Below are positions 55 to 12,617 of a DNA stretch of 12,617 nt, in pieces (position 1 is the stretch's first letter; each line of letters starts with the position of its first letter). Source of the stretch: Verrucomicrobiota bacterium (lineage in GTDB: Bacteria; Verrucomicrobiota; Verrucomicrobiia; Limisphaerales; Palsa-1400); the NCBI GenBank assembly GCA_049510745.1, contig JBEKYR010000073.1:1-12617 (forward strand). Reading direction: 5' to 3'. Below the pieces are notes generated by a model. It did no database searches. It worked only from the letters and a program-made list of their open reading frames with translations, and was not told where the DNA came from. A program made the translations under genes and the position numbers.

Positions 55-97
55 AGGTAACTTTATGTTAGGTGAGAATTGCTTAGGAGTTCAAAGT

Positions 98-125
98 GCG
101 GGCGGAAGCTTTCGCCTCCGCCCGC
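98..125 (-). terminator. GC-rich hairpin after the Ro60 gene (weak terminator or stabilising hairpin)
   Basis: GCGGGCGGAGGC-GAAA-GCTTCCGCCCGC followed by only ACTTTG, a poor U-tract. Confidence 0.5.
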
Positions 126-153
126 GTTGTTCCTGGCGTCCTTGAACCGTTCG

Positions 154-1845
154 CTATTCGCGAACAAAGTCCGCGATTACGGCCGGCACCGTCGTGTCGA
201 AGCCGACCACGTCCAGCATGCCGCGGTCGTTCGGGTCGGCGAGGGTGAAGCCGTTGGAGGTCATGCCCACAACGACCGCCTTCGCGTCGCCGACGAACTC
301 GTCGCGATACTGGCGCAGGGCCTGGGCCGGATGAATGTTGCCCGCCCACGTCTCGCTGTCCGTGTAGGTGACAAACGCCGACACGTTCAGCTTGTTGCGG
401 GCGGCCCACACCATTGGCAGGGCGCAATCCGTGCCACCCATCGGGATGGCTTCGATGCGCTTGATAACCTCGGCCAGTCTCATGCGCGGCGAGAGGTTCA
501 CGCGGGTGATGCCCGGTTCGCCGCCGCCATGCATGCCGCCGTAACGACCCTGTGCCGGAGCCGAGAACGCGATGATCTCGCATTCCGGTTCGGTTGCAGC
601 CGTGATCAGTGCCATCGCGGCGCTGCCTTCGCGGGCCGAGATGCATGAACCCGCGATCATCGAAGCCGCCATTGAGCCGCTCACGTCCAGCGCCAGCAGC
701 ACCGGCTTGTCGCATGGTTCCACGTTCTGGAACGTCGCGTAAAACGCTTCGTCCAGAGCGTCCACCACGGCCGACACTGGCGACCACTTGAGCGCGCCCT
801 TGTCGCCATGGCCCTGGGCGTAGATTTTCTGCGCCACAAGGACCGCCAGCGGGTGGATGCGCGCACGCCTGAGCGCCGTCTCGTCACGCAGCTTGCGGAC
901 GACCAAACGCTTGGCGTCGCTGAAGGGAGCCAGCAGACCGAGGCCAGTCATCTTGCCGAGGTTGCGGATCATCGCCGTCATCGGCATGCGTTCAAGCAAG
1001 GCTTCCCACACAATGGCTTCATTGAGCCACTGCGTTGGGATGGCTTCACGCGGCAGATCGAATTCGTTAATGAGCTTCACGATTTCGCCTGCGCTCGAAG
1101 CGCGCTTGGCCTGCTCGAAGGCTTCGATGAGCTTCGGCAGTGCGCCGACCGCGCCATACTTGGCAACACGGTCTTCACCGCGCACCTTGCGCTTCACTTC
1201 ACGCTCACCTAGCGAATCCGCGCCGGCCAGCAACCAGCGGAAGACCGATTCGTGCTGGGGCGACGGAGCCTTCGGGTGGGCAAGGCGGAGCAAGTCGCCG
1301 TGAGACCAACCATCGCGCTGCTGATACTTCACCGCCTGGTGCGCGAGATCATCGGCATCGCGGTAAACATACCAGTCGCCAACTCCATTGCGCAGACCAC
1401 GGCCCCAGCCGCGCATGGCGTTCACGTATTCAGCGAAGTGGAACAGATGCGTGCCAATGCGGCAGACCTTGTTCAAGATCGCGAATGCGTGCGCCTTCGC
1501 CCGGGCGTCACCATGGGTGACGGCGAGTGCCAGGGCGAAGATGGCCGGATCATTCTTGGGCGCGCGGCCCGCATCGCTGATCTCAACGATGCGGTTGACG
1601 GCGCGCACGCCATCCGCCTTGATGCAACGGACAATCGCCTCGTGGTTCTGCTTCACCAGATCGCGTTCCGTGATGTAATACGTGCCACCCTCGGCGCCAA
1701 GGATGAGGAAACGGTCAAGCCGCGTCCAGTCATCCACTTCCCAGGAGAAGCCGCCACCGGAGTTGCGGATCTGGGTCGAACCCGGGATCGGCTGCAATTG
1801 GGGAGTGATGCGGCGATTGAACTGACGTGCGTAGTTGATAGCCAT
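154..1845 (-). CDS. rsr: Ro60 orthologue (TROVE domain plus vWA domain), 563 aa
   Basis: N-terminal NSGGGFSW..LDRFLILGAEGGTYY, KYQQRDGWSHGDLLRLAHP, vWA MIDAS DVSGSM, GGTDCALP, TDSETW, C-terminal GMLDVVGFD; SD AAGGAGG at 1851-1857; adjacent Y RNAs. Confidence 0.97.
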   Translation of the reverse strand: MAINYARQFNRRITPQLQPIPGSTQIRNSGGGFSWEVDDWTRLDRFLILGAEGGTYYITERDLVKQNHEAIVRCIKADGVRAVNRIVEISDAGRAPKNDPAIFALALAVTHGDARAKAHAFAILNKVCRIGTHLFHFAEYVNAMRGWGRGLRNGVGDWYVYRDADDLAHQAVKYQQRDGWSHGDLLRLAHPKAPSPQHESVFRWLLAGADSLGEREVKRKVRGEDRVAKYGAVGALPKLIEAFEQAKRASSAGEIVKLINEFDLPREAIPTQWLNEAIVWEALLERMPMTAMIRNLGKMTGLGLLAPFSDAKRLVVRKLRDETALRRARIHPLAVLVAQKIYAQGHGDKGALKWSPVSAVVDALDEAFYATFQNVEPCDKPVLLALDVSGSMAASMIAGSCISAREGSAAMALITAATEPECEIIAFSAPAQGRYGGMHGGGEPGITRVNLSPRMRLAEVIKRIEAIPMGGTDCALPMVWAARNKLNVSAFVTYTDSETWAGNIHPAQALRQYRDEFVGDAKAVVVGMTSNGFTLADPNDRGMLDVVGFDTTVPAVIADFVRE

Positions 1846-1904
1846 GGTGGCCTCCTTTATATGTGCGCGCCGCCAACTCCCGGCACGGGTTTTCTATCGG
1901 TTAA

Positions 1905-1973
1905 ACTGCGGACAAGTTGGTGAATGTGGGGTTGGTCATTTGAAGTGATAACCCATGTTCTTCGGCCCGCAGT
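1905..1973 (-). ncRNA. Y RNA, minimal 69 nt, no tRNA-like domain (YrlB-like)
   Basis: 5' ACUGCGGGCCGAAG...UGGGUUAUC and 3' CUUGUCCGCAGU form the terminal stem with the bulged-C Ro60 site; resembles the metazoan Y1 5' end GGUCCGAAG..GUGAGUUAUC. Confidence 0.85.
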
Positions 1974-1987
1974 CAATGAGCTTGCGA

Positions 1988-2235
1988 TTATTCGCGGAAA
2001 AAAGTGATTCCTGAGAGCGCCGTCATATCGGCCGGTGCGGAGACAACATTTCTTAAAAGCTGCGTCCAGAGCCGCATGGGCACAGGTCGTTCCGGCCCAG
2101 CTTTTCGCTGAGTTCCTAATTCCCGTGAACGAGGCGCACGCCGCGTTTCACCTGTGTTTCGGACGGGAAACCCTTGCGACGTTTGCCGGTGATTTCGAAA
2201 CTTGAGTCTTCCTGATCGTGAGCATGGTTTGACAT
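1988..2235 (-). CDS. Small SEC-C (Zn-binding) protein, recoded or pseudogenised (in-frame TAG, +1 shift)
   Basis: SD GGAGG at 2240-2244, ATG 2235: [59 protein letters not shown]. The +1 frame continues [19 protein letters not shown]. The 3' end is uncertain. Confidence 0.75.
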
Positions 2236-2265
2236 ACGGCCTCCTGGTTTGAGTGTTACGGTTGA

Positions 2266-2290
2266 TTCATCGCGGCCGCGCCGTGATGAA
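2266..2290. other. Hairpin between a Y RNA and the SEC-C ORF
   Basis: TTCATCGCGG-CCGCG-CCGTGATGAA inverted repeat. Confidence 0.5.
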
Positions 2291-2296
2291 ATTTCA

Positions 2297-2422
2297 GATG
2301 GGCAAGGGACGCCATGGAATTACTCCTTGCGGAGGCTGCTCTACCGTTGAGCTACTGCCCCTTCAAGGGGGCAGATCGGACTCGAACCGACAACCGACGA
2401 TAACCCACAACTTCGGCCCATC
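2297..2422 (-). ncRNA. yrlA: Y RNA, YrlA type (circularly permuted tRNA-like domain)
   Basis: GAUGGGCCGAAG..UGGGUUAUC / CUUGCCCAUC Ro stem; T arm GUCGG-UUCGAGU-CCGAU, loop-closed acceptor-like stem, D arm UAGCUCAACGGUAGAGC. Confidence 0.92.
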
Positions 2423-2430
2423 AAATCAAA

Positions 2431-2554
2431 AGCGGACAAGAATGCGACTGTGGAGTTGCCCAGTGTGCTGCCTTTAGACCACCGCGGAATCTTCCGCGGG
2501 GCGGAATTGAACCGCCACTGCCGGGCCCCGATAACCCACAATCTATGGCCTGCT
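2431..2554 (-). ncRNA. Y RNA, YrlA type
   Basis: AGCAGGCCAUAG..UGGGUUAUC / CUUGUCCGCU stem; T arm GGCGG-UUCAAUU-CCGCC; closed CCGCGGA/UCCGCGG stem; D-like UGGUCUAAAGGCAGCAC. Confidence 0.85.
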
Positions 2555-2563
2555 AAAGAGAAC

Positions 2564-2694
2564 CGACGGATAAGAAACGAACTGGAAATTAACGTGCTCT
2601 ACCACTGAGCTACCCCGGCATATGGAGCCGGAGGCGGGATTCGAACCCGCGTCCACGCGCTTCGTAGGCGATAACCCAATCCTGCGATCCGTCG
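2564..2694 (-). ncRNA. Y RNA, YrlA type
   Basis: CGACGGAUCGCAG..UGGGUUAUC / CUUAUCCGUCG stem (compensatory AU/AU change); T arm GCGGG-UUCGAAU-CCCGC; closed acceptor-like stem; D arm UAGCUCAGUGGUAGAGC. Confidence 0.9.
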
Positions 2695-2708
2695 AAAAGC
2701 TAAAAACA

Positions 2709-2816
2709 TAGACGGACAAGAGGCGAGGTGGAAATCCATCGGTTGCCCAATGGCGCGGGATTTGCATCCGCTCGCGGTTTCCCGCTTACGATAATCCAAA
2801 CTCAACGGCCCGTCTA
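2709..2816 (-). ncRNA. Y RNA with G55-type T arm and no D arm
   Basis: UAGACGGGCCGUUG..UGGAUUAUC / CUUGUCCGUCUA stem; GCGG-GAAA-CCGC hairpin, T-like GCGGA-UGCAAAU-CCCGC, CCAUUGG-GCAA-CCGAUGG hairpin. Confidence 0.8.
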
Positions 2817-2819
2817 AAT

Positions 2820-2896
2820 TGACGCTCCCGATGGGAATCGAACCCACGTTTCCCGGACTAAATCCGGACATTCTCTCGCGGTTGAACTACGGGAAT
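2820..2896 (-). tRNA. tRNA-like gene with UUA anticodon (ochre/amber suppressor-like, or pseudo-tRNA)
   Basis: Cloverleaf ATTCCCG/CGGGAGC, D stem GTTC/GAAT, anticodon arm TCCGG-ATTTAGT-CCGGG, T arm GTGGG-TTCGATT-CCCAT, G73, ends TCA rather than CCA. Confidence 0.7.
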
Positions 2897-2981
2897 ATCC
2901 GGCACCCTCCTGCTGAATGCAGCACGGATGTCGGACGCGGTCTGGTCCGAGACCAACCTAGGTTGCGCCTTCGGAAAGTTC

Positions 2982-3110
2982 AGATGGACAAGTGGCGTGA
3001 TCGAACGGAGGCACTCCATGCCGGGAATCGAACCCGGACCGCCAAGGCTTTCGCCACGGACGGTACGCCCTCCTTATGGTGGAGGATAAACGATCAACTT
3101 CGGCCCATCT
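2982..3110 (-). ncRNA. Y RNA with T arm and extra hairpins
   Basis: AGAUGGGCCGAAGUUGAUCGUUUAUC / CGAUCA..CUUGUCCAUCU stem; T arm CCGGG-UUCGAUU-CCCGG; additional GAAA-capped hairpin. Confidence 0.82.
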
Positions 3111-3114
3111 AAAT

Positions 3115-3190
3115 TGGTCAGGAAGTCGGGATTCGCACCCGAACCGTCGCGTTCACAACGCGGAATGCTGCTGTTACACCACAATCCTGA
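3115..3190 (-). tRNA. tRNA-His(GTG), atypical
   Basis: Anticodon loop TTGTGAA; T loop TGCGAAT; encoded CCA; A73 and no G-1:C73. Confidence 0.8.
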
Positions 3191-3197
3191 TATGAAA

Positions 3198-3273
3198 TGG
3201 AGCCCCGGGTCGGACTCGCACCGACGATTACGAGCTTACGAAACTCGCCCTGTCGCTTCTGAGGCACTGGGGC
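3198..3273 (-). tRNA. tRNA-Thr(CGT)
   Basis: CGAGT-TTCGTAA-GCTCG; GCC..GGC acceptor, U73, CCA; T loop TGCGAGT. Confidence 0.87.
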
Positions 3274-3277
3274 AAAA

Positions 3278-3355
3278 TGGTGTCCACGGCAGGAATCGCG
3301 CCTGCGACCTCCACCTTCGCGCGGTGGCGCTCTGATCTAACTGAGCTACGCGGAC
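3278..3355 (-). tRNA. tRNA-Arg(GCG)
   Basis: CCACC-GCGCGAA-GGTGG (G32, C33); T loop CGCGATT; CCA. Confidence 0.85.
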
Positions 3356-3358
3356 AAT

Positions 3359-3436
3359 TGGCATCCGTGATCGGACTCGCACCGATTAGGCCTGGCTTGA
3401 AAGACCGGCTGCTCGATCTGCTTTGCATTCACGGAC
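3359..3436 (-). tRNA. tRNA-Glu(TTC)
   Basis: Loop CTTTCAA; acceptor GTCCGTG/CACGGAT, G73, CCA; T loop TGCGAGT. Confidence 0.87.
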
Positions 3437-3440
3437 GAAA

Positions 3441-3515
3441 TGGCCCCCGAAGTTGGTATCGCGCCAACGTCTCCTCCTCTTCAGGGAGGCGCTAATCTGC
3501 CTCAGCTACTCGGGG
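3441..3515 (-). tRNA. tRNA-Phe(GAA)
   Basis: CCTCC-CTGAAGA-GGAGG; T loop CGCGATA; G73, CCA. Confidence 0.87.
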
Positions 3516-3552
3516 AAATGGCTCACTGAGCCGTAGCTTGGAGAGCGAAAAC

Positions 3553-3626
3553 TGGTCGTCCCGGCAGGTAACGCTCCTGCTTCTTCCGGTTATCGACCGG
3601 AGGCTCTGCTTTTGAGCTACGAGACG
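3553..3626 (-). tRNA. tRNA-Ile(GAT)
   Basis: TCCGG-TCGATAA-CCGGA (C33); T loop AGCGTTA; A73, CCA. Confidence 0.87.
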
Positions 3627-3772
3627 GTGGTTAATTGGGGCTTCAAGCCAAACCGCTTCGCGGGACGGAAAACGATATTCACCTTCCCGGTTGGCCGGAT
3701 TCGCATGGCGCGAAAAGGCTTGTAGCTCCTGCGAAAGAGCAATTGGCTTTGATACTGAAGAACGGTCTTCAT
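3617..3772 (-). CDS. Putative 51-aa basic small protein inside the tRNA array
   Basis: SD-like AAAGGAAAG just before ATG 3772; MKTVLQYQSQLLFRRSYKPFRAMRIRPTGKVNIVFRPAKRFGLKPQLTTVS; fills the largest gap in the array; the stop overlaps the tRNA-Ile 5' end. Confidence 0.45.
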   Translation of the reverse strand: MKTVLQYQSQLLFRRSYKPFRAMRIRPTGKVNIVFRPAKRFGLKPQLTTVS

Positions 3773-3800
3773 GGGCTTTCCTTTCGTTGAGGGTTAATAT

Positions 3801-3887
3801 TGGCGGATGGTGTAGGGATCGCACCCACGCAGCCCGCAGGCTCACTCGGTTTTCGGGACCGGGGCATTACTTCTCTGCCAACCATCC
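3801..3887 (-). tRNA. tRNA-Ser(CGA)
   Basis: Loop CCCGAAA (C33), long variable arm, GGATGGT/ACCATCC, G73, CCA; T loop TGCGATC. Confidence 0.9.
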
Positions 3888-3895
3888 GAGCAAAT

Positions 3896-3969
3896 TGGCT
3901 GCCAGACTTGGACTCGCACCAAGACAAGCGGCTTAACAGGCCGCCGTGCTACTTTGACACCACCTGGCA
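3896..3969 (-). tRNA. tRNA-Asn(GTT)
   Basis: GCGGC-CTGTTAA-GCCGC; U1-A72, G73, CCA; T loop TGCGAGT. Confidence 0.9.
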
Positions 3970-3970
3970 A

Positions 3971-4046
3971 TGGCGCTGCCGGCAGGATTCTCACCTGCAT
4001 CGATCCGCTTAGAAGACGGATGCCTGATATGTTCGGCCACGGCAGC
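3971..4046 (-). tRNA. tRNA-Arg(TCT)
   Basis: TCCGT-CTTCTAA-GCGGA; T loop TGAGAAT; G73, CCA. Confidence 0.9.
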
Positions 4047-4053
4047 ATGGAAA

Positions 4054-4129
4054 TGGTCGGAATGGCAGGATTTTCACCCGCGGCCTCCCGGTCCCAAGCC
4101 GGGTGCTCTGAAGACTGAGCTACATTCCG
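4054..4129 (-). tRNA. tRNA-Pro(TGG)
   Basis: CCCGG-CTTGGGA-CCGGG; C1-G72, A73, CCA; T loop TGAAAAT. Confidence 0.92.
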
Positions 4130-4136
4130 TGAAAAA

Positions 4137-4212
4137 TGGCGGACCCGAAGGGAGTTGCACCCTCAACCCTCCCGCAGACAACGGGGCGCTCTGCTGATTG
4201 AGCTACGAGTCC
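4137..4212 (-). tRNA. tRNA-Asp(GTC)
   Basis: Loop TTGTCTG (U37); GGA..TCC acceptor, G73, CCA; T loop TGCAACT. Confidence 0.87.
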
Positions 4213-4216
4213 GAAA

Positions 4217-4304
4217 TGGTGGGAAGTGCTGGTAACGCTCCAGTCGTCGCTTCCAGCTTGTTTGAAGACACCGGTTTTACAGACCGGCAGCCGGATCACT
4301 CCCT
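4217..4304 (-). tRNA. tRNA-Tyr(GTA), D arm essentially absent
   Basis: CCGGT-CTGTAAA-ACCGG; long variable arm; only about 10 nt between the acceptor and anticodon stems; T loop AGCGTTA; A73, CCA. Confidence 0.78.
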
Positions 4305-4309
4305 AAAAT

Positions 4310-4387
4310 TGGTAGCGGGGGCAGGAATCACACCTGCCTCAAACGGTTTATGAGACCGTCCTCTGTGCTTTAGTCGAGTTCCCCGCA
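4310..4387 (-). tRNA. tRNA-Met(CAT), initiator-like 1:72 mismatch
   Basis: ACGGT-CTCATAA-ACCGT; acceptor TGCGGGG/CCCCGCT with U1:U72; T loop TGTGATT; CCA. Confidence 0.85.
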
Positions 4388-4393
4388 GTGAAA

Positions 4394-4468
4394 TGGTGGA
4401 GTCGATGGGTAACGCTCCCATATCAACTTGCTTGCAAGGCAAGTGCATTACTTGTCTGCCACGACCCC
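4394..4468 (-). tRNA. tRNA-Ala(TGC)
   Basis: CTTGC-CTTGCAA-GCAAG; G3:U70 and A73 identity elements kept; T loop AGCGTTA; CCA. Confidence 0.92.
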
Positions 4469-4474
4469 GGAAAA

Positions 4475-4546
4475 TGGCAGGCTGCCTCCGTGCCGCCCGG
4501 AGTACGCTGAGTTTTGGAGACTCGGCCGCGTGCTGACGCTCAGCCT
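4475..4546 (-). tRNA. tRNA-Trp(CCA), shortened D arm
   Basis: Loop CTCCAAA; G73, CCA; D arm GCGT-CAGC-ACGC; T loop GGCGGCA. Confidence 0.8.
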
Positions 4547-4555
4547 GTGAATGAA

Positions 4556-4632
4556 TGGTGCGGCTGCCGGGAGTTGCGCCCGGACTTCCTTCGTGGCGGG
4601 GAGGCATTCTGCAAAGGTTAAATTACAACCGC
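4556..4632 (-). tRNA. tRNA-Gly(GCC)
   Basis: Loop CCGCCAC (C33); GCG..CGC acceptor; A73; T loop CGCAACT; CCA. Confidence 0.85.
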
Positions 4633-4643
4633 GGAAATTAAGA

Positions 4644-4671
4644 GGGCCGGGAGCGTTCAGGTTCCCGGCCC
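4644..4671. other. Strong hairpin just 5' of the first tRNA
   Basis: GGGCCGGGA...TCCCGGCCC inverted repeat with no long U-tract. Confidence 0.6.
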
Positions 4672-4981
4672 ATGCCATTTCAACAAAGAACAAACACCTC
4701 TTGGCGATCTACTCGATCCCAACCCGCGGTTTCACGGCGGCTGTTTCGGTGTTTAGGGGCACACCTCCTGCGAAGCCCTTAATATGTAAATCTAAAATTC
4801 GTTTCGTTCGTCTTGGTGACGCTGTCTTCTGGTCGTGGGCAGACCCCACCGGTGAGGCTTCTCTGCTCGTCCTCGCCAAAAACAATTTGTCGCCAAAAGA
4901 CATCACCTGGATGTCGCTCTATTTTTGCTCACAGATCGTTCGTCTTTCGTTATCTGCCATTCTCGTCTCAGTCATACAGGG

Positions 4982-5018
4982 AAAATAAAAAACCCTGCTT
5001 ACACGCGGTAAGCAGGGT
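4982..5018 (-). terminator. Intrinsic terminator of a transcription attenuator
   Basis: Minus strand ACCCTGCTTAC-CGCGT-GTAAGCAGGG-TTTTTTATTTT. Confidence 0.92.
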
Positions 5019-5040
5019 GAATAAATTCTCTTTCGATTCG

Positions 5041-5211
5041 TTACCTGCTTACAGCCAGTCTATCCAAATTGCCTTCGGGTTGCTCTCCAATAGGCACCAA
5101 GGATAGTCCAAGGCCAAACACATGGCCTTGGGTGTACCGGCTATGACGTGTCGCTTTCGCGACCGCCATTGTCGGCCAACTCGTGGCTGATATGCTTAAG
5201 CAAGTCTTCAT
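5041..5211 (-). CDS. Putative attenuator leader peptide, 56 aa
   Basis: MKTCLSISATSWPTMAVAKATRHSRYTQGHVFGLGLSLVPIGEQPEGNLDRLAVSR*; TAA immediately follows the antiterminator; no clear SD. Confidence 0.65.
   Translation of the reverse strand: MKTCLSISATSWPTMAVAKATRHSRYTQGHVFGLGLSLVPIGEQPEGNLDRLAVSR
5044..5053 (-). promoter_or_regulatory. Antiterminator strand
   Basis: TGTAAGCAGG is an exact copy of part of the terminator 3' arm, so it can pair with the 5' arm CCTGCTTAC (5008-5016); it lies in the last codons of the leader ORF. Confidence 0.8.
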
Positions 5212-5223
5212 CGAACTTAAAGA

Positions 5224-5283
5224 CGTATAGCACATGCCACTGGTTACATGCAAGAATTAATTTGAAAATTTTACAAATATTTT
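5224..5283 (-). promoter_or_regulatory. Candidate sigma70-type promoter with AT-rich UP element
   Basis: TTGCAT (5253-5248), 18 nt, then TATACG (5229-5224) preceded by TG-C; AT-rich tract 5254-5283; the -10 is imperfect. Confidence 0.45.
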
Positions 5284-5370
5284 GCGGGCGGGGCAGGTCC
5301 AACTGGAATTCACATATTCGGATTGGTTGATGCGAACGTCATTTATCCCAAGGTTTGGGAGGAAAGCAAC

Positions 5371-5973
5371 TCAGGCGACCGACTCCTTCCAGCGAGACCG
5401 CTGGGAAGGAGGCAAGTAGCCGAACAGGAGATCCATGCTTTCTTGGAAGGTGGTCTCAGGTTCGGCTTGCTGGCAATAGCGGTGGTACACTTCGCAGGCA
5501 TGGCGGCGCAGTTGTTCAACGGGCGCGGCACTCAAGCCGGCGTGGGCGAAGGTGCCGATGAGCATATCCAACAAAGGAACGAACTCGGCGTCGTCGAGGG
5601 GCTTTTGATCGTTGTAGCTGAACCAGTGATCGAGTTGGATTTTCCCGAACCGCAGCAAGGTGGTTTCCGTGTCTGTGGCCGAGTGGTTCTCGGTTTTGGG
5701 CGGAGGAGGGTGGATGATGGCAGTCTCCGTGGCACCGTGCAAAGGCGGCAGTTCTTCGGCGGGAAGGCGTAGCGTGATGCTTCGCGCCTGGCCCGGCACG
5801 CGAGAAATCAGCCCGCGTCGCTCCAGGGTCAAAATCATTTGATGCACGCTCGGAGGTGTGACCTGGAAGAATTGCATCATCTCCGCCTCCGCCGGCGGAC
5901 GCCCGTGCAGAGTGATGTAGTGGTTTATGTAGGCCAGGAACTGGCCTTGCCGCGAGGTATAGGGCGGTTTCAT
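5371..5973 (-). CDS. LexA-type winged-helix DNA-binding protein with unrelated C-terminal domain
   Basis: YTSRQGQFLAYINHY..GRPPAEAEM..F.VTPPSVHQMILTLERRGLISR.PGQARSI resembles the LexA N-terminal domain; no S24 peptidase domain is evident. Confidence 0.8.
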   Translation of the reverse strand: MKPPYTSRQGQFLAYINHYITLHGRPPAEAEMMQFFQVTPPSVHQMILTLERRGLISRVPGQARSITLRLPAEELPPLHGATETAIIHPPPPKTENHSATDTETTLLRFGKIQLDHWFSYNDQKPLDDAEFVPLLDMLIGTFAHAGLSAAPVEQLRRHACEVYHRYCQQAEPETTFQESMDLLFGYLPPSQRSRWKESVA

Positions 5974-6755
5974 AGAATGTGCGTCCGCTTCTGCGACCGC
6001 GTGTTCTTCCGCAACTGTTGCAAACGTTCCAGATTGTTGGCAGGCAGGTCGTAAGCAGCAGGGGCAAGCTGGACTGCTTTCTCCAAGACCTTCTGTGCCT
6101 TGTCGAACCGGCCCAATTCTGCCAGTCCCCAGCCATAGTCATTGAGCACCGAGCAGTTGTTGGGGTCATTGGCGACGGCCCTTTCCAGCCACGGCAAGGC
6201 TTCCTGTTTTTTCCCGGCGCGGCACAAAGCCCAACCCAGGCCAATAATAAACTCCTGCTCGCCCGGGCTGGCTGCCAAGGCGGCCTCATACAGGCGGCAG
6301 GTGTTGGCGGCATCGCCCGCGTCCATCAATGACTGGCCAGCTTTGTCGATAATTTTAATCCAATCCGTGGTCTTTGGTGAAAGCTGCGTCAATTGGAGCA
6401 GCAACCTCATGCCTTCCGCCTTGCTGCCGTAGCGATGTTCATAACAGCCAACTGTCAGCAAGGCAGGAGCATATTCCGGGTCAATGGCCAAGGCGGCAAA
6501 TCCTGGGGGCCACTCGGGCGCAGGCAATCGCTCGCCCTGAAGGCTGGCCACCGCTGCCCCAAACAGGCTGTCACTTATGCTTACATCATAAGCCCACTCC
6601 GCCGCCGCCCGGCGCTTCGAGGCGGGTTTTCGCGCGTAGTCGGCTCGGAGGGCTGAAAGTTCCGGGTCGCGGGCCAGCAGTTCGGCGAAGCATTGCATCG
6701 TGAGGATGGCTGGCTTGGTTCTGGCGGTTTTTTTGGCCATGCTTGGGCTCCTCAT
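5970..6755 (-). CDS. Tetratricopeptide repeat protein
   Basis: TPR-like helices (LGWALCRAGKKQEALPWLERAVANDP; YGWGLAELGRFDKAQKVLEKAVQLAP); 4-nt overlaps with neighbours. Confidence 0.85.
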   Translation of the reverse strand: MRSPSMAKKTARTKPAILTMQCFAELLARDPELSALRADYARKPASKRRAAAEWAYDVSISDSLFGAAVASLQGERLPAPEWPPGFAALAIDPEYAPALLTVGCYEHRYGSKAEGMRLLLQLTQLSPKTTDWIKIIDKAGQSLMDAGDAANTCRLYEAALAASPGEQEFIIGLGWALCRAGKKQEALPWLERAVANDPNNCSVLNDYGWGLAELGRFDKAQKVLEKAVQLAPAAYDLPANNLERLQQLRKNTRSQKRTHIL

Positions 6756-7303
6756 TGGCGGCTTTCATGCATTTCTTCCAGCTTGTCCACGAAGCGGGCC
6801 ATCTCTTCAATTTTCATGAGGCTGAAACCGTTAAGCCCGTTACCGTGGCGGGAATCATAATGCTGGCAATAATCCGCCGCCAGTTTGTAGCCGTGTGCGG
6901 GTGAGTCAGAATGCCAGAGATAGATGGCTAGCGCCTGCTCCACGAGCATCAGGTTCCAGTCATGGATGATGCGCACCGGGCCCCATTGCTGGTACTTGTA
7001 TTCATTTTGGAATTTCCGAAGCCGATCATGCAACACCTTTGCCAATTTACGGTCCATTTTGGGGGCGTACGGGTTCACGCCGGCCAGCAGTGCCCGGGCC
7101 TGGCGCAAAAGCTCAGCCGCTTCAACCCCGGTTTTGCCCTTGCCCGAGATGGCCCGACTCGCCACCCAGATGGCGAACGAAGGCTGCCGCCCTGCCAGCC
7201 CAAACCACTTCTTCAGGACTGTCAACCGGGTAAGATTTGCATTGCCGCGCGACCCGATCTCGGCAGAGATTTTCAGGAGTTTTTCGGAAATGTCGGTGCG
7301 CAC
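6752..7303 (-). CDS. Hypothetical protein (about 183 aa)
   Basis: Likely GTG start at 7303 (VRTDISEKLL..), just after the upstream stop; the longer 7507 start overlaps the upstream gene. Confidence 0.7.
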   Translation of the reverse strand: MRTDISEKLLKISAEIGSRGNANLTRLTVLKKWFGLAGRQPSFAIWVASRAISGKGKTGVEAAELLRQARALLAGVNPYAPKMDRKLAKVLHDRLRKFQNEYKYQQWGPVRIIHDWNLMLVEQALAIYLWHSDSPAHGYKLAADYCQHYDSRHGNGLNGFSLMKIEEMARFVDKLEEMHESRQ

Positions 7304-7322
7304 AGCCAAATGTCCCTGTTCC

Positions 7323-7847
7323 TCAGGTTCCGGGCGTGGCGTCTGGCGGCAGCAGGCCCATCTGTTTGGCCAGTCCCAGCGAGACCACGAATCCATTCGA
7401 CAACTGCACATCCGTGAATGTGTCCACAAAAGCGCGTCGGCATAGGCCAGGTTCAGAGTGCTGGTGCAAGCGCAGCGTTCGTTCGATCTCGGTGGCTTTG
7501 CCCCCAACCGTTGTCTTTTTCACCTGGAAAAAATCGCAAATCGTGTCGAAAGTCAGATGCGCCGGCTGGCTTGGGTCAAAGAGGAAATTCATCCGTGCGA
7601 TAACGTGCGTCACGGAGGCTGCCCAGACGGTCGGGTTGCCCCGGCGGCAATCCAGACGTTTTGACCGGCAGACACGCTTCCAGAGATCGAGTGCGAAGCC
7701 CGTCAACTCCGGATCCAAATGTGCCGCGCCGAAACTCGTGATGCTGGCTGACACTTCGCAAAAGCGCTCCTGTTTTTCCTCTGCCACCCCAGCACTGTGT
7801 TTTGATTCCGCACCGATGCGGGACGAGTCGTTTTGGATTTCATTCAT
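7323..7847 (-). CDS. DUF6398-like protein
   Basis: WAASVTHVIARMNFLFDPSQPAHLTFDTICDFFQVKKTTVGGKATEI motif recognised from memory; ATG 7847 avoids overlap. Confidence 0.7.
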   Translation of the reverse strand: MNEIQNDSSRIGAESKHSAGVAEEKQERFCEVSASITSFGAAHLDPELTGFALDLWKRVCRSKRLDCRRGNPTVWAASVTHVIARMNFLFDPSQPAHLTFDTICDFFQVKKTTVGGKATEIERTLRLHQHSEPGLCRRAFVDTFTDVQLSNGFVVSLGLAKQMGLLPPDATPGT

Positions 7848-7912
7848 GAGATTGATCCTACCAGTCTGCCGGGCGGGTTCAAGCCAGTGATGCCAATTCA
7901 GCCATCTATTGT

Positions 7913-8521
7913 TTAATTGCGGGCGATTTCCTCCGCGAGCGGACGCATCCAAGCGGACAATTTGGGAGCGAGCAACGCCAAATCCTTCTTGGTCTTCGGA
8001 TCCAGATCCCGTTTCAGCCGTGCCACATGTTGTGACATCTCTGGGCTGCCGTGCAGATGGCGCAATGCCTGAATCACCAGGCCCGCCCGTCGGCCCGCTC
8101 CGATCAGATTCCGCGGCGCGGCTCGCCGAAAGTCCAGTATCAACTTCCCCAGCGATATTCGGCGAGGCACACCGTCTGTCAAAATGACGATTTTGGCCGG
8201 AACTTGCTCAGATAACCCGAGCGCATTTGCCGCGTAGGCCCCGGAGAACTGCCATTGCGCGTGGCTGCCGTTCATCAATGCACGCACCGTGGCCATGATG
8301 TCCGGTGCCGTCTGGCCGATGATCGGGTGTTGACGAGGCAAATCGTAAAGGCCCCGCCGAATCCGGCGAATCCTGCCGGCTTTGGCCAGCCGATGCAAGG
8401 CCACCCCCACCGCCGAACGGGCTCCCAAATCCAGGAAATCGCCCGGCGAAAACACGCTGCCTTGCCGGCTTCTGCGAATTCGGCTCAAAACCCTCTTATC
8501 CATGGTTTGCATCGTTTTCAT
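7913..8521 (-). CDS. DUF6088 family / AbiEi-like type IV antitoxin
   Basis: VFSPGDFLDLGARSAVGVALHRL..G.IRRIRRGLY and SGAYAANALGLSEQVPAKIVILTDG motifs. Confidence 0.85.
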   Translation of the reverse strand: MKTMQTMDKRVLSRIRRSRQGSVFSPGDFLDLGARSAVGVALHRLAKAGRIRRIRRGLYDLPRQHPIIGQTAPDIMATVRALMNGSHAQWQFSGAYAANALGLSEQVPAKIVILTDGVPRRISLGKLILDFRRAAPRNLIGAGRRAGLVIQALRHLHGSPEMSQHVARLKRDLDPKTKKDLALLAPKLSAWMRPLAEEIARN

Positions 8522-8763
8522 AAGCGTCTTTGTAACAAAAACTAGCTAGTTTTTATTACAATAACAAGTCAATTTCACCTCGCATCAGATGTAGTGCCTG
8601 AACGGCAGCGGCGCTTTCGGCACGGCCGGGCCACTGATGAAAACTTCGCCTGCGGCATCAGCGAATTTGAGCGTCACTGGTACTCCGTCGGCAGAATAGA
8701 TCAAAATTGGGGCGCATCGTGTGGAATCGATTACGACTCCTGAGATGGTCCGTCTTTATCGCC

Positions 8764-9210
8764 TCATGCACCGCAACACTTTTTGAATTTCTTACCGCTG
8801 CCGCACGGGCAGGGATCGTTGCGTCCGACTTTGGGTTCGGAACGACGCACGGGCATCGCTGGCGCAGGGAGGGAGGTCGTCGGAAAAAAAGGCGCCTGTG
8901 GGGCCGGTCGCTGCCGGGCCAGAAGTTGAAGATTGTATAACGCCATGAACTCGTCCAGGGCATGCCGGTCGCCGAGATCAACGCCTGCTTTCAGGGCTGC
9001 CATCGCGAAAGTTTTGGCTGGTCCCCAATGGCGTTCATCCTGCGAGGCGGCAATGACTTCCGTATCCAATTCGGCCGCGGTCTTAGCCAGAGCGCGGGCA
9101 TTGCTCAACAAGCCCTTCTCCTCCAGGAAGATGAAGAACGCCGACAGCACCGGGGCCACCGCCTGGAAAAAGGCGAGTTCGGCTGACATTTTTCCGGGCA
9201 GAGTGCTCAC
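8764..9210 (-). pseudogene. SEC-C motif protein, probably 5'-truncated
   Basis: C-terminal [22 protein letters not shown]; coding-like only from about LPGKMSAEL; upstream sequence is not protein-like. Confidence 0.6.
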
Positions 9211-9311
9211 AATTGTCGGCAGTCGGCAGCGGCAGTCGCCCGGTGCCCTGTGCCAGCCCACAAGTTCGGCACTTGCTCCTTCCGGGAGCCTGGATTATTC
9301 ACGGTGAGACA

Positions 9312-9695
9312 ATGAAAACTGCCCCACCACGGGTTTTGTTGAAGACGAGCACCGACGAATTGTTTCTGCCGTCCCGAATCGTTTATCACATGTGGGACGA
9401 AAAGGAACTGGTGACCAGGCTGCGTCAATTGCGATGCATGGCGTTCGACCGGCCAAGGGGACGCTGGACCTGGAACTTCGAGCACGAAGCCAAGGCGATG
9501 GGCTTCCCGGCGATTTACGAATCCGGGCCGGCGGCACAGCAAGGGGTGATGCCTCAAGACCGGTTCAACCTTTTCCATCACCGCGTGTCCGGCGAGTCGG
9601 GCGTATCGGTGCGTGCGGCGACCATGCCCGCTAGCCTCGATAGTGCTCTTACCTGCCGGGCACCCAGCAATCCGGCGGCGGAAGAGCTGGATTGA
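9312..9695 (+). pseudogene. Hypothetical protein fragment (N-terminal part)
   Basis: MKTAPPRVLLKTSTDELFLPSRIVYH..WTWNFEHEAK looks protein-like for about 75 aa, then degenerates and runs into the convergent protease gene. Confidence 0.45.
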
Positions 9696-12617
9696 TATGG
9701 TACCCGTTGGTCTGCCATATCAGGTTTGCGTTCGTATAGTAGGCTGCCGGGACTGGACAGGGGGGGATTGGCCAGGGCCCGGTGGTTACATAAGCGTTTG
9801 AGTAAGCGAGGTACTCGCTCGTCGAGATGGTGTAGTCCGCATTGAGGTCTGCCGGATGGGGTGTGGCGTTCGTGGCGGAAAAGCCCAGAGCGCGATAGTA
9901 GCACAGCGGTAGGCCAATGGCCTTGGTATCTGTCAGGGTTATAACATTGGAGGAGGGGGTGATGGAGAAGATGGCACGCCAGGAGGCGAGGTTTGTGGAG
10001 CATTGAACCCAATAGGTGCTACCTTGGACGCAGTCGAGGACGAGTTGGACAGCCCCGTTTGCTAGGTGTTGGGGCGCGCGGAAGCATGCGGTAGGTGGTG
10101 TGTCGTTGTCGGTTATGGTGACTGTTGTTGTTGTCGGACTTCCCAAGGCGGCACCGCTCGCGCCGCTCAAGCTCACCGTGAAGTACTCGTTCCCTGAGTA
10201 ACTGCCCTTGTCGATGATCAGCACGTCCACGTACTTGTCCGCCGCGTCCCCATCCACCCAACTCAGCGTCCCGGATACAGCGGTGTAGTCCGAGCCGGCG
10301 CCAGCGCTCCCATCGGCCGTGGCATAATTGACACCAGCAGCACCATACGACCCACCGGTGCGATTGACGTAAATCCGAATGCTCCCCCCGTTCTCGTTTA
10401 CGGAGTAGGCGGAAGATGCGAATTGCAAGTTACCCCGTGAGGGGGGGGTATCGTTATCAATAATCGTCACCGTCGTTGTTATCGGACTGCCCAGCGAGGC
10501 GCCACTTGCCCCGCTCAAGTTGAGCGTGAAGTACTCGTTCCCCGAGTAACTGCCCTCGTCAATAATCGGCACGTCGGCGTACTTGTCCGTCGCATCCCCA
10601 TCCGCCCAACTCAGCGTCCCGGATACTGCGGTGTAGTCCGAGCCGGCTCCGGCGCTCCCATCGGCCGTGGCATAGCTGACACCAGCAGCACCGTAGGAGC
10701 CACCCGTGCGGCTGACGTGAATCCGAATACTGCCCCCGTTCTCGTTCACGGAGTAGGTGGAGGAGGCGAATTGCAAGTTGCCGGGCGAAAAGAAGGCTTG
10801 CAGGAATTCGTCCCAGTGCGTCGCCGCCGTGAAAGCCAGGTTCGCGGGTGTCGCGCTTTGGTTAATGTAATTATTGTAGGTGTTATAGGTGTTGAAACAG
10901 TTAGCGTCCTGCGGTGATCGCGGAAAGAAGATGCTCAGTCCGTAAGTGCCTTTGTCGAACCAGAATCCGTTATTCTGGGTGGCGCCTGAGTCGTTGGCGT
11001 GTTGTTCCGACACTAGGAATGGGCCGCCAGCGTTCCCAATGGCGGCAATAACGGAATTGGCAGCGGTTTGGACTCCTGTGACCGGCACAACCGCCACAAG
11101 TTCCTGGCAAAGGTCTCGCACATCCAAAAACATATTGCCTGGGTCCATAGTCCAACTCTCATCGTGGCAGAAAGCAAACTTCTGAGCATGATTCTGCGCG
11201 GTGGCTATATTGGCGCGATAAACCGCCGTGTTTTGGATGAGTGCCGAAGCCAATGTGTCTACCGCACTGGAAATCGTCGCCGCCTGTCCGGGGCGGGTGA
11301 CGGCGATCGTGCGTCCACCGGAGATTGCGGTAAAGTAGGTATTGGCGATGGCTTGGGCCAAAGCCTGAGAGGTTGTCGCAGGCGTTATGGAGGCAACGTA
11401 GGTCTCCCACGAGGGGTCGATGGCCCAACCTTCATTCTCTGAAGCGACCAAGTAGTCGACTGAGTTGCGAAGCTCGTAGTTTACTTCAATCATCTGCATT
11501 AAGCATGCATCCAAATGAAGCACCTCAAGATTGCGCCCCAGTAATGTCTTCACATGGGCTGCAGCGTTGCCGAGGTCGGCAACAGAAAGGTAGTCTCCGG
11601 TATCATCCCAGCAGATCCCAGTGGGCACCGGTGGCAAGTTTGTTTCGCCGACAACCGTTGGGGAAATTCCACCTCCATGGTCGAAGATGACTAATGCGTA
11701 GTGATCACCGCTTATTCCGGATCGAGAGATAACAAAGTCGGTAAAAGTGTTGATTGTGTTAATCGACCCGGTGTCGAACTCAGAACCACTCAGCCCGATT
11801 TGTGCTGGCGTCCAACGGTCAACCCCATCGGTGTAGTCATCCATGTTGCCATCCTGCCTAATTCTGAACACACGGTCCAGCCCAGCGCCCGATCTATCCA
11901 CCAACATAAAAGCTTGGATGTTGTCGTTCAGGTTGGCAGCCACGGTGCTGAACTTGGCCGGTATGTACTGGTCTAGGTCGGCCCCGCCGCCGGACCCGTT
12001 ACACATGTAGTACATTACGACCCACGTAGGCGTCTTTAGGGCAGTAAACTGGTTGAGTTGAGTGAGACTGTCCCATGGCGAACCGCTGCCAATGGTCTGC
12101 CAAAGGCCCCAGGCAACGTCGTAGGACCCCAGTGATCCAGAAGGGACATTATAGTAACGCGTCTGCGTTGAGTATCCCGACGGGACCGTCTTGTACACGT
12201 CGTTAGCGGGGTCGCTCAGCCATGTGGAAGTGCCGTTCTGTCTAATTGAACATCCTAGGCCGATAGATATGCTCGATGAATTAGGGTTGTAAATTTGAAA
12301 ATACACCGTGAGCTGCCCCCCTGCGGTGATCGTCGCTGGTGAGACATAGCAGTTGGCAGCGACGAGGGTTGGCGTTCCCGGCACAACCGTGATGGTCTTG
12401 GTGTAGGTGTTGTCCGATTCATTACTCTCGCTGATCGCGCCCGTTGAATCGGTGATTATTTCCAACGTATGCGTGCCCGCACTGAGTGAACCGACGGAAT
12501 AGCCGGTCACCGTCGTGTAGTAATTCGCGTTCAACGGCGGATCCGTATACCAGGAATTATTCAACACCCCATCGACGTACAACGCGGTGTAGAACCGTGC
12601 CGCCGTGGCCGCCGTGC
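9649..12617 (-). CDS. Extracellular clostripain-family (C11) cysteine peptidase with Ig/CARDB-like region and two Calx-beta domains; 5' end outside the window
   Basis: WVVMYYM, YALVIFDHGGG (catalytic His), LHLDACLMQMIEV (catalytic Cys), YLVASE, GLSIFFP; ESNESDN CARDB-like motif; the frame is open to the window edge. Confidence 0.9.
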   Translation of the reverse strand, partial: TAATAARFYTALYVDGVLNNSWYTDPPLNANYYTTVTGYSVGSLSAGTHTLEIITDSTGAISESNESDNTYTKTITVVPGTPTLVAANCYVSPATITAGGQLTVYFQIYNPNSSSISIGLGCSIRQNGTSTWLSDPANDVYKTVPSGYSTQTRYYNVPSGSLGSYDVAWGLWQTIGSGSPWDSLTQLNQFTALKTPTWVVMYYMCNGSGGGADLDQYIPAKFSTVAANLNDNIQAFMLVDRSGAGLDRVFRIRQDGNMDDYTDGVDRWTPAQIGLSGSEFDTGSINTINTFTDFVISRSGISGDHYALVIFDHGGGISPTVVGETNLPPVPTGICWDDTGDYLSVADLGNAAAHVKTLLGRNLEVLHLDACLMQMIEVNYELRNSVDYLVASENEGWAIDPSWETYVASITPATTSQALAQAIANTYFTAISGGRTIAVTRPGQAATISSAVDTLASALIQNTAVYRANIATAQNHAQKFAFCHDESWTMDPGNMFLDVRDLCQELVAVVPVTGVQTAANSVIAAIGNAGGPFLVSEQHANDSGATQNNGFWFDKGTYGLSIFFPRSPQDANCFNTYNTYNNYINQSATPANLAFTAATHWDEFLQAFFSPGNLQFASSTYSVNENGGSIRIHVSRTGGSYGAAGVSYATADGSAGAGSDYTAVSGTLSWADGDATDKYADVPIIDEGSYSGNEYFTLNLSGASGASLGSPITTTVTIIDNDTPPSRGNLQFASSAYSVNENGGSIRIYVNRTGGSYGAAGVNYATADGSAGAGSDYTAVSGTLSWVDGDAADKYVDVLIIDKGSYSGNEYFTVSLSGASGAALGSPTTTTVTITDNDTPPTACFRAPQHLANGAVQLVLDCVQGSTYWVQCSTNLASWRAIFSITPSSNVITLTDTKAIGLPLCYYRALGFSATNATPHPADLNADYTISTSEYLAYSNAYVTTGPWPIPPCPVPAAYYTNANLIWQTNGYHINPALPPPDCWVPGR
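10090..10782 (-). repeat. Tandem intragenic duplication of a Calx-beta domain (348-nt period)
   Basis: GNLQFASS.YSVNENGGSIRI...DNDTPP occurs twice (starting at 10782 and 10434) with high nucleotide similarity. Confidence 0.9.

Follow-up and report, generated by a model that had tools for sequence, protein, structure and literature searches.

A small open reading frame that samples nearly the whole genetic code, a candidate ribosome-mediated attenuator ahead of a supernumerary tRNA array in Limisphaerales

Why should a short open reading frame (ORF) with no recognizable protein product, yet with every amino acid among its 56 codons, be kept open directly ahead of a set of spare tRNA genes? The question is raised by a stretch of 12,617 nucleotides (nt) from a Verrucomicrobiota bacterium of the order Limisphaerales (GenBank assembly GCA_049510745.1, contig JBEKYR010000073.1, positions 1 to 12,617), which in its full length we call the window. 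On its minus strand, where all of the features described below lie, a leader ORF (ORF1; 5041..5211, with ATG at 5211..5209, 56 sense codons and TAA at 5043..5041) is followed by an intrinsic terminator, an array of supernumerary tRNA genes, genes for Y RNA-like RNAs, and the gene for a Ro60 homologue. By comparing this locus with its relatives, we find that evolution appears to keep nearly the whole genetic code represented in the 56-codon leader as its peptide drifts, ahead of spare tRNAs and RNA quality control. The best reading of these data, which we regard as probable though well short of certain, is a ribosome-mediated attenuator of the BmrB/trp kind that would sample the whole code. Its working principle appears to be that of known leader-peptide attenuation; what appears to be new is whole-code coverage in place of codon runs.

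ORF1 contains 43 distinct codons, all 20 amino acids, and 31 of the 31 sense NNY/NNR half-boxes (a half-box being the first two codon bases plus a Y or R third base, a division that roughly follows the decoding classes of tRNAs). It does without 18 sense codons, and for 12 of these the U/C partner is present. Our recount agrees with the figures given for ORF1 in a preliminary description of this DNA (56 sense codons, 43 of them distinct, 20 amino acids, and 18 codons missing, 12 with a U/C partner), and the rare codons listed there (TTA, CTA, ATA, AGA, AGG, TCA, ACA, and GTA) are all found in ORF1. Under uniform usage, 56 codons would be expected to yield 36.8 ± 2.4 distinct codons and 26.0 ± 1.7 half-boxes, and the probabilities of reaching at least 43 codons, all 20 amino acids, and 31 half-boxes are 0.008, 0.05, and 0.0011, respectively. 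Windows of 56 codons taken from 1508 long ORFs of the same genome contain 29.6 ± 3.2 distinct codons (P = 0.0001 for at least 43) and have all 20 amino acids in 1.6% of cases. In the same comparison, ORF1 has 12 codons rarer than 5 per thousand versus a mean of 2.2 (P = 0.002), and the G+C content at its third codon positions is 0.54 versus 0.73. The other two frames of the same DNA hold 37 and 36 distinct triplets. By a hand tally, ORF1 of the window uses 39 of the 45 elongator anticodon species found in its genome. The codon diversity of ORF1 is real and strongly non-random.

Is this diversity a property of one locus or of a conserved element? A BLAST search with a 341-nt stretch matched 30 of 61 related genomes (the window's own included), often in 2 to 4 copies; apart from the window's genome, 21 of 30 members of its family matched and so did 8 of 30 genomes from elsewhere in the order, while 300 other genomes sampled across the phylum gave none. 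For wider scans we used an IUPAC pattern derived from the first nine codons of ORF1 (ATG required), which had been checked on 21 of 21 sequences. This yielded 70 loci in species-representative genomes, all of them records of metagenome-assembled genomes (MAGs) and nearly all labelled Verrucomicrobiota, Limisphaerales, or subdivision 3, as well as at least 121 loci in metagenomes; one of the 70 (L073) is a chance match. With 18 loci cut by contig ends dropped, 168 unique elements were obtained; the terminator motif is present in 163 of them, and in 158 the ORF ends immediately after the segment able to pair with the terminator (segment 2, described below). A check that did not depend on the pattern gave a similar picture: among 18 copies found by BLAST and fetched, 16 were evaluable, of which 15 have an ATG ORF with the same end and one begins with GTG; the 15 retain that end even where nucleotide identity is as low as 66%. 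Within Verrucomicrobiota, the element is a conserved feature of one order (Limisphaerales-type MAGs).

Among these relatives the reading frame is retained, as expected of a leader attenuator, in which a short 5′ ORF is kept open (158/168), and the encoded peptide is not. The 154 unique ORF1 peptides are 46 to 59 codons long (exactly 56 in 116), and their genes end in TAA (131), TGA (13), or TAG (10). Distinct gap runs come in multiples of three in 17 of 21 cases inside ORF1 versus 6 of 38 downstream of the stop codon, and one copy carries +2 and +1 insertions that jointly restore the frame. Approximately 3.9% of point changes would create a stop, so that the roughly 812 changes placed on a tree of 65 sequences would be expected to include some 31 if they were neutral; 69 unique elements contain one premature stop, together with three copies that read past the usual one. 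At the same time, changes by codon position number 263/236/313, and roughly two in three codon changes replace the amino acid. The peptide has no match in Pfam or NCBIfam, and only 11 called proteins among 5.8 billion match it (each, where named, a "hypothetical protein"), three of them longer by at least 30 residues and two cut short. A small functional protein is rejected on these grounds, namely the nearly equal change at the codon positions, the lack of Pfam and NCBIfam matches, and the handful of called proteins. As judged from these patterns of substitution and gaps, ORF1 is selected to stay open and not for any particular peptide. Comparison of homologous leaders had been proposed in the preliminary description, and it bears out what was anticipated there: the ORF, its stop position, and its codon diversity are kept while the peptide drifts.

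Coverage of the code is likewise a shared feature. All 20 amino acids occur in 137 of the 154 unique ORF1s, whereas frames 1 and 2 of the same sequences reach 0.6% and 1.3%. On average 30.2 of the 31 half-boxes are covered (72 of 154 ORF1s cover all 31, and 125 of 154 cover 30 or more), versus 24.8 and 25.95 in frames 1 and 2, neither of which is complete in any of the 154. A further control is offered by ORF2, a second small ORF downstream with the same phylogeny, in which 17.8 kinds of amino acid are found (1 of 108 peptides complete) and 39.5 distinct codons, equal to the uniform expectation. The sequences are related and coverage tests on them overstate their independence; the frame and ORF2 controls are unaffected by kinship because they share the same tree. 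In a tree-aware simulation (300 runs from a complete root), codon columns evolved independently with their own observed states and rates. The simulated fraction of complete ORFs was 0.48 ± 0.14 versus 0.89 observed, the number of half-boxes 28.8 ± 0.36 versus 30.2, and the fraction with all 31 half-boxes 0.08 versus 0.47; 0 of 300 runs reached the observed values. On a smaller set of sequences the same simulation gave P = 0.015 for completeness. When the peptides were held fixed and the codons redrawn synonymously, 28.6 (uniform usage) or 28.0 (pooled usage) half-boxes were covered and 0 of 300 draws reached 30.2, which argues for selection on codon classes and not on amino acids alone.

The ORF1 columns compensate for one another in amino-acid coverage. 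Tyr, when missing at its main column, is supplied elsewhere in 84 of 92 ORF1s, versus 6 of 62 when it is there; the corresponding figures are 10 of 12 versus 41 of 142 for His, 40 of 43 versus 49 of 111 for Glu, and 57 of 57 versus 59 of 97 for Gln. With its last 6 codons removed, ORF1 still covers 29.4 half-boxes versus 24.9 ± 1.7 expected for 50 codons. The enrichment for the amino acid or acids of the operon that marks leader attenuators is not seen; there is no codon run, and the whole code is present instead. Selected for every amino acid and nearly every NNY/NNR class and not for its peptide, ORF1 thus acts as a sample of the whole code.

How might such a sample be read out? Terminator 1 (4982..5018) was found by a terminator scan as an 11-pair stem (5018..4992) followed by TTTTTATTTT to 4982, and consists of segment 3 (5018..5008), a loop, segment 4 (5002..4992), and a U-run (4991..4982). 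The last four sense codons of ORF1 make up segment 2 (GCUGUAAGCAGG; 5044..5055), the 5′ strand of the antiterminator, whose twelve bases are almost identical to the 3′ arm of the terminator hairpin and hence able to pair with its 5′ arm, ACCCUGCUUAC. The preliminary description had already remarked that the final codons GCT GTA AGC AGG TAA (5055..5041) hold the complement of the 5′ arm ACCCTGCTTAC (5018..5008), and we confirm this. A third partner, segment 1 (CUUGCUUA, codons 3-5; 5197..5204), was found with RNAalifold and pairs either with segment 2 (as an anti-antiterminator) or with segment 4. A structured domain within ORF1 (5060..5194) comprises helices 2-8 and includes the hairpin CCAAGGCC-AUGUGUUU-GGCCUUGG. 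The fold of 5260..4975 is far more stable than those of shuffled sequences (z = -7.3) and shows segment 2 paired with the terminator 5′ arm. The stop codon lies directly behind segment 2 in the 158 unique elements noted above, and the spacer between it and segment 3 is 22 nt in the window and 19-27 nt in homologues, with 22-23 nt in 122 of 157.

Both of the competing structures show compensatory changes. Across 69 unique homologues, terminator 3:4 has 98.3% of cells paired and 2 pairs changed on both sides, and its motif is present in 163 of 168 elements; antiterminator 2:3 has 98.6% of cells paired, versus 27-54% in slid controls, and 3 pairs changed on both sides. Two lineages carry a U-to-C change in both segments 2 and 4, matched by an A-to-G change in segment 3. 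For the terminator-state structure as a whole (helix 1:2, seven internal helices, and the terminator), 93.0% of cells are paired versus 26-40% when slid, and 14 pairs have changed on both sides; helices 4, 6, 7, and 8 contain 12 such pairs. Mean duplex energies are -16.8 kcal/mol for 2:3, -18.1 for 3:4, and -8.3 for 1:2. We also folded transcripts that end after segment 3, the point at which the decision would fall, with a 30-nt ribosome footprint (153 of 154 sequences). The antiterminator was blocked in 150 of 153 transcripts by a footprint on the stop codon, and it formed in 153 of 153 when the footprint lay on the start codon; with footprints at codon 15, 30, or 45 it formed in 120-125 of 153. 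Folding of the alternative structures had been suggested in the preliminary description, and the proposal made there that a ribosome at the stop codon would mask the antiterminator is supported by these modelled footprints.

The leader has a putative promoter of its own, read from the sequence as a -35-like hexamer TTGCAT (5248..5253) and an extended -10-like TGcTATACG (5224..5232). From these we infer a transcript start near 5217, which would give a 5′ untranslated region (UTR) of about 6 nt. Related motifs recur among 156 unique homologues, TTGnnn at -42/-43 from the ATG in 99 and TAnnn[T/G] at -19/-18 in 136. A sigma-70 consensus scan of 4200..6000 returned no site; since it also misses the putative promoter of the leader, it is uninformative on promoters in the spacer between leader and tRNAs. 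In a search beside homologous elements, each of seven query proteins encoded upstream matched at most 2 of 69 unique loci, and because these upstream genes vary, the conserved unit can be taken to begin at the promoter of the leader. In four RNA runs, the depth bins upstream of about 5208 fall to 0 in three and to 1.5 in the other; as relatives differ in their upstream DNA, this drop was not used as evidence for a transcript start, and depths were not used for ranking the parts.

We therefore picture the leader, in a model that remains provisional, as the 5′ control region of an accessory operon composed of spare tRNAs, then Y RNAs, and then Ro60. Its own promoter would yield an RNA starting almost at the AUG of ORF1. 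In this RNA, pairing of segment 2 with segment 3 would prevent the terminator hairpin (3:4) from forming. A first ribosome that kept pace with RNA polymerase would reach the stop codon and cover segment 2; segment 3, 22-23 nt further on, would be left free, the terminator would form, and transcription would stop. If that ribosome were late, for whatever cause, 2:3 would pair and the polymerase would read on. Lateness could be caused by scarce, uncharged, or damaged tRNA for any codon or by a general slowing of elongation. Translation of ORF1, the kinetic race between ribosome and polymerase, and the inducing condition are parts of this scheme that we infer.

A polymerase that read through would enter a second unit of small ORF and hairpin before reaching the tRNA array, the Y RNAs, and Ro60. 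The 340 nt that follow terminator 1 are conserved among homologues and contain ORF2 (4709..4903; 64 codons, TAG stop), whose AUG lies in a conserved hairpin (4915..4899). ORF2 is open in 65 of 69 unique homologues, and of 108 unique ORF2 peptides, 96 have 61-65 codons (about 63 being typical) and 97 end in TAG. Its changes fall on the codon positions in the ratio 354/374/354, without periodicity. It is thus kept open with no more than chance-level coverage of codons and amino acids. A conserved block then holds a second GC-rich hairpin with a U-rich tract (terminator 2; 4635..4671), which ends 3 nt before the first tRNA-like gene. As these 3 nt leave no room for a promoter, tRNA transcripts would have to begin upstream of hairpin 2. 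ORF1 with terminator 1 and ORF2 with hairpin 2 may represent two attenuator units in tandem; a search for an alternative pairing of hairpin 2 found none, and the fold of the spacer (4985..4630) is not significant (z = -1.4). The claim of the preliminary description that the leader gates the operon thus holds in part: a gating role is supported, but the leader would not be the sole gate, as ORF2 and the second hairpin with its U-tract lie in between.

Several observations weigh against the attenuator that we favor, or at least limit it. Sensing of individual tRNAs cannot be told apart here from a global gauge of translation speed. ORF2 and hairpin 2 intervene between leader and tRNAs, and the array supplies only about 11-13 tRNA species, not a full set. 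A Shine-Dalgarno-like motif precedes ORF1 in just 1 of 156 unique homologues, and the predicted 5′ UTR is very short. Helix 1:2 is weak and, although 92.4% paired, has no compensatory change. Ribosome-free transcripts folded to the decision point form 2:3 in 110 of 153 cases and 1:2 in 42, the window's own being among the 42, so that an untranslated leader might default to either pairing. When full transcripts were folded at equilibrium with footprints (every second sequence, 74 of 154), the terminator formed in nearly all scenarios; such folds do not discriminate between the models, and the switch could work only kinetically. Metatranscriptome contigs from four runs and four studies cover 4410..5207, although RNA libraries can contain DNA, and such contigs cannot show transcript ends, starts, levels, or regulation. 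Among the contigs listed, X4 record 28 (4856..5079) alone spans terminator 1 and extends more than 31 letters to either side of it. Five others were not counted as bridging: X3 record 20, X2 record 13, and X1 record 6 cross the U-run but extend fewer than 31 letters on one flank, and the remaining two, X3 record 21 and X4 record 30, end at or short of it.

Codon placement sets a further limit. In 67 of 154 ORF1s, AGR occurs nowhere but in the last 6 codons, and in 44 of 154 GTR is confined to the last 4; in 138 of 154 the only Asp codon is one of the last 8. A ribosome stalled at the last 4-8 codons would itself cover or touch segment 2. The earlier expectation that stalling at any codon before the stop allows read-through is accordingly supported in general and does not extend to AGR, GTR, and Asp codons in this final stretch, where a stalled ribosome would mask segment 2. 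Coverage also falls off among the most divergent copies, with 35 distinct codons in L020, 25 half-boxes in L239, and 17 kinds of amino acid in L237, which starts with GTG. Finally, the 5′ third of ORF1 is conserved also at wobble positions and in loops, and the internal helices covary, which suggests an added role at the RNA level that a pure codon sampler would not need.

One more far-reaching version of the attenuator, which we offer tentatively and would not yet bet on, is that the leader serves as a cis-acting checksum of the whole tRNA pool. A single ribosome run would be timed against RNA polymerase, and the loss, cleavage, or uncharging of any tRNA class would turn on the spare tRNAs together with Ro60 and the Y RNAs. 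Anticodon nucleases, such as those of phages, colicins, and toxin-antitoxin systems, would be examples of triggers, and restored decoding would turn the operon off again. If this were true, the locus would constitute an innate, sequence-agnostic circuit for surveillance of tRNA integrity, built from a leader peptide.

It could also be argued that promoter, ORF1, and terminator form an independent unit, giving rise to a stable small RNA or a small protein, which travels with the tRNA island; the array would then be transcribed from another start, and the 2:3 pairing would have no regulatory role. The unit does have promoter-like boxes of its own and a strong terminator, a second terminator-like hairpin and a conserved 340-nt stretch stand before the tRNAs, and full-length equilibrium folds favor termination. 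We nonetheless consider a separate gene unlikely. It would not account for the compensatory changes in 2:3, some of them common to segment 4, or for a spacing from stop codon to segment 3 that is held at 19-27 nt, and a peptide that evolves almost neutrally, with its 11 matches among called proteins, makes a poor candidate for a product. Moreover, the unit is found beside a same-strand array in nearly all loci with flanking sequence, the 3 nt behind hairpin 2 require that tRNA transcripts start upstream of a terminator-like hairpin, and one contig from an RNA library extends across terminator 1.

The conservation of wobble positions and loops in the 5′ third of ORF1 brings to mind a switch made of RNA only. 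Here the domain of about 170 nt closed by 1:2 would sense its ligand in the manner of an aptamer, the ligand being a small molecule, a tRNA, or a protein such as Ro60; once bound, it would stabilize 1:2 and thereby promote the terminator, and ORF1 would be secondary or kept for some other reason. The architecture is that of an OFF-riboswitch, in that the 3′ strand of the closing helix also belongs to the antiterminator, and the very stable fold and the compensatory changes in internal helices would fit. The closing helix itself, however, is the weak one and the one without covariation, and Rfam gave no family for the leader at the gathering score and none at E <= 10 in 4400..5450, T-box, riboswitch, and known leader models included (the best match in the leader, PyrG_leader, reached 23.4 bits versus a cut-off of 65). 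Nor would an aptamer explain why indels stay in frame inside ORF1, why stop codons are avoided, why the stop is fixed behind segment 2, or why coverage of amino acids and codon classes is frame specific and compensated. We give this explanation little weight.

Much the same holds for schemes in which the parts are those of our preferred attenuator and the logic differs. Translation of ORF1 might open 1:2, so that initiation would mean ON and its absence OFF, or ORF1 and ORF2 might act jointly, or Rho might be involved; the output would then reflect the availability of ribosomes rather than slow decoding. That a start-codon footprint gives the antiterminator in every transcript folded, that the ribosome-free window sequence and 41 others form 1:2, and that a tandem ORF/hairpin unit follows are all compatible with such schemes, which we regard as quite improbable in that they give no reason for the coverage of all codon classes or for a stop directly behind segment 2, and since the antiterminator forms without any ribosome in 110 of 153 folds. 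A T-box, a riboswitch, or a known leader model is rejected as the identity of the element, there being no Rfam match at the gathering score or at E <= 10 and, against the first two, a strong constraint on the reading frame.

The enterobacterial leaders trpL and hisL and the multivalent ilv and thr leaders have 14-30 codons with runs of one to three of the amino acids that their operons make, and to our knowledge classical leader-peptide attenuators all monitor one or a few amino acids by means of such codon runs. With trpL and hisL, ORF1 shares a short (here putatively) translated ORF, mutually exclusive 1:2, 2:3, and 3:4 pairings, an intrinsic terminator, and the masking of segment 2 by a ribosome at the stop codon. 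Unlike them, it has 56 codons, no run, and whole-code content, and it precedes RNA genes rather than biosynthetic enzymes. The closest precedent may be the 53-codon bmrB leader of Bacillus subtilis bmrBCD, in which the ribosome is the sensor: translation inhibitors and rare codons raise read-through, and codon optimization lowers it (PMC4191407). As in ORF1, the 3′ part of a long leader ORF overlaps terminator, antiterminator, and anti-antiterminator structures (PMC4191407). The two differ in that bmrB, which was investigated with antibiotics that target the ribosome, governs a drug-efflux transporter, whereas ORF1 precedes spare tRNAs; in that the bmrB terminator lies inside the ORF, whereas here the stop precedes it by 22-23 nt; and in that, in the available text of that study, no selection for full codon or amino-acid coverage is described for bmrB (PMC4191407). 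The two sequences are not related. A multipurpose sensory upstream ORF has been reported in toiL, of the Escherichia coli topAI-yjhQ transcript, where stalling at different positions reports many translation stresses. It controls a toxin-antitoxin pair by occluding a ribosome-binding site and by termination that depends on Rho, and no whole-code design is reported for it (PMC12121999).

The genes that the leader would control are themselves of interest. At 4556..4632 lies a degenerate tRNA-like gene with an encoded CCA end, at the place of the homologues' tRNA-Gly(GCC); ARAGORN makes no call here and Rfam gives weak tRNA-like hits. The array proper (2821..4468) has 11 genes according to ARAGORN and 12 according to Rfam: Ala, Asp, Pro, Arg(UCU), Asn, Ser, one found by Rfam only, Phe, Arg(GCG), Thr, His, and one with anticodon UUA. 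The genome has 76 tRNA genes in total, and since 20 amino acids and selenocysteine are already served by the 57 that lie outside the two array contigs, the arrays are supernumerary; as same-strand tRNAs beyond a complete housekeeping set, they have the defining features of such arrays. A same-strand array follows the element in nearly all loci with enough flanking sequence, in the conserved order Gly, Ala, Asp, Pro, Arg-UCU, Asn, Ser, Ile, Phe, Arg-GCG, Thr, His, and so on. The UUA-anticodon tRNA (2821-2897) has a canonical anticodon loop (U33, purine 37) and resembles an ochre suppressor; at least three other arrays (L039, L069, and L222) have it in the corresponding position, and most ORF1s end in UAA (131 of 154). 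Conserved suppressor read-through of that UAA into segment 3 was considered and dropped, as spacer lengths modulo 3 are spread 27, 70, and 60.

Downstream of the array are two YrlA-like genes (2678..2564 and 2398..2335; 44.5 and 35.5 bits, below the Rfam cut-off of 69) and a stem-bulge/Y-RNA-like gene (1974..1905; 38.2 bits, cut-off 38) that adjoins the gene for a Ro60 (Rsr) homologue (154..1845), identified by Pfam TROVE and Ro60-type vWA domains (E = 3.5e-46 and 2.1e-60). A TROVE and vWA protein with an adjacent Y RNA is what characterizes bacterial Ro60/Y RNA modules. The order of Y-RNA-like genes seen in the window recurs in four other genomes. Of five other genomes inspected for a TROVE gene, four carry one 4-5.5 kb downstream of the leader and on its strand, with the same Y-RNA-like genes in the interval. 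In L222 and L223 a Deinococcus-Y-RNA-like match takes one of the Y-RNA places.

Precedents exist for both halves of this cargo. The tRNA L-array of Anabaena sp. PCC 7120 is supernumerary, normally silent, and induced by translational stress (PMC8421152, PMC10272220). Verrucomicrobia are among the phyla with long tRNA arrays, the neighborhoods of which are enriched in RNA-related genes; L-arrays have up to 43 genes (PMC8421152), and that of the window is shorter. Control of the Anabaena array differs from that proposed here in being exerted at the promoter, by the ribbon-helix-helix repressor TrcR on direct repeats (PMC8421152, PMC10272220), and the words leader, attenuat-, and terminator are absent from the text of PMC8421152. 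In Salmonella, the rsr-yrlBA-rtcBA operon, which is controlled by RtcR and responds to tRNA damage, likewise combines Ro60 with tRNA-like Y RNAs (PMC7790460); unlike that operon, the window contains neither RtcR nor RtcB, and the sensor proposed here is a translated leader. In the full-text library that we searched, neither a leader ORF before a tRNA array nor a whole-code leader is described, a statement that holds for that library only.

If the attenuator operates as we suppose, one small RNA could monitor the entire decoding capacity of the cell. It would provide a protein-free control of accessory tRNA arrays, matching the translational-stress induction known in Anabaena, and it would tie Ro60 and Y RNAs to translation surveillance by a route other than RtcR. 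Such an element could also serve synthetic biology as a compact, portable sensor of tRNA supply. For comparative genomics, frame-specific and compensated coverage of codon classes offers a criterion by which similar sensors might be recognized.

The genome of the window has a second copy of the leader (G000:C74:5872-6207), 92% identical. The array that it heads (7082-11147 of that contig) is partly different in content, with Cys and Arg-UCG among its tRNAs, and is cut by the end of the contig. As many as 4 copies of the element occur in some relatives. Searches of viral_contigs with the pattern and of GenBank phages gave no match to the element, and a phage or mobile origin was set aside. Some records carry other labels, namely Baltobacteraceae, Saccharimonadales, Acidobacteriota, and Binatia (L071, L082, and others). 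Two of these are identical over 245 compared bases to copies in genomes placed in the window's own family; the labels look unreliable and were not used as evidence for horizontal transfer.

Genes upstream of the element in the window encode a LexA-type winged-helix protein, a TPR protein, DUF6398 and DUF6088/AbiEi-like proteins, and others. The first of these (5371-5973) has 200 amino acids, a LexA-type DNA-binding N terminus, and no match to the LexA peptidase; its gene ends about 160 nt upstream of the ORF1 ATG, and it was not found beside the element in other genomes. The gene for a DUF6088/AbiEi_4-like regulator of the antitoxin type (7913-8521) overlaps that for the DUF6398 protein (7323-7952), and a DUF6088 protein, 40% identical, is also encoded upstream of the element in L053 and L080. 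Further upstream, and unrelated to the leader, a gene that runs off the window (9649-12615) encodes a large protein of the secreted type with CARDB, clostripain (peptidase C11), and two Calx-beta domains.

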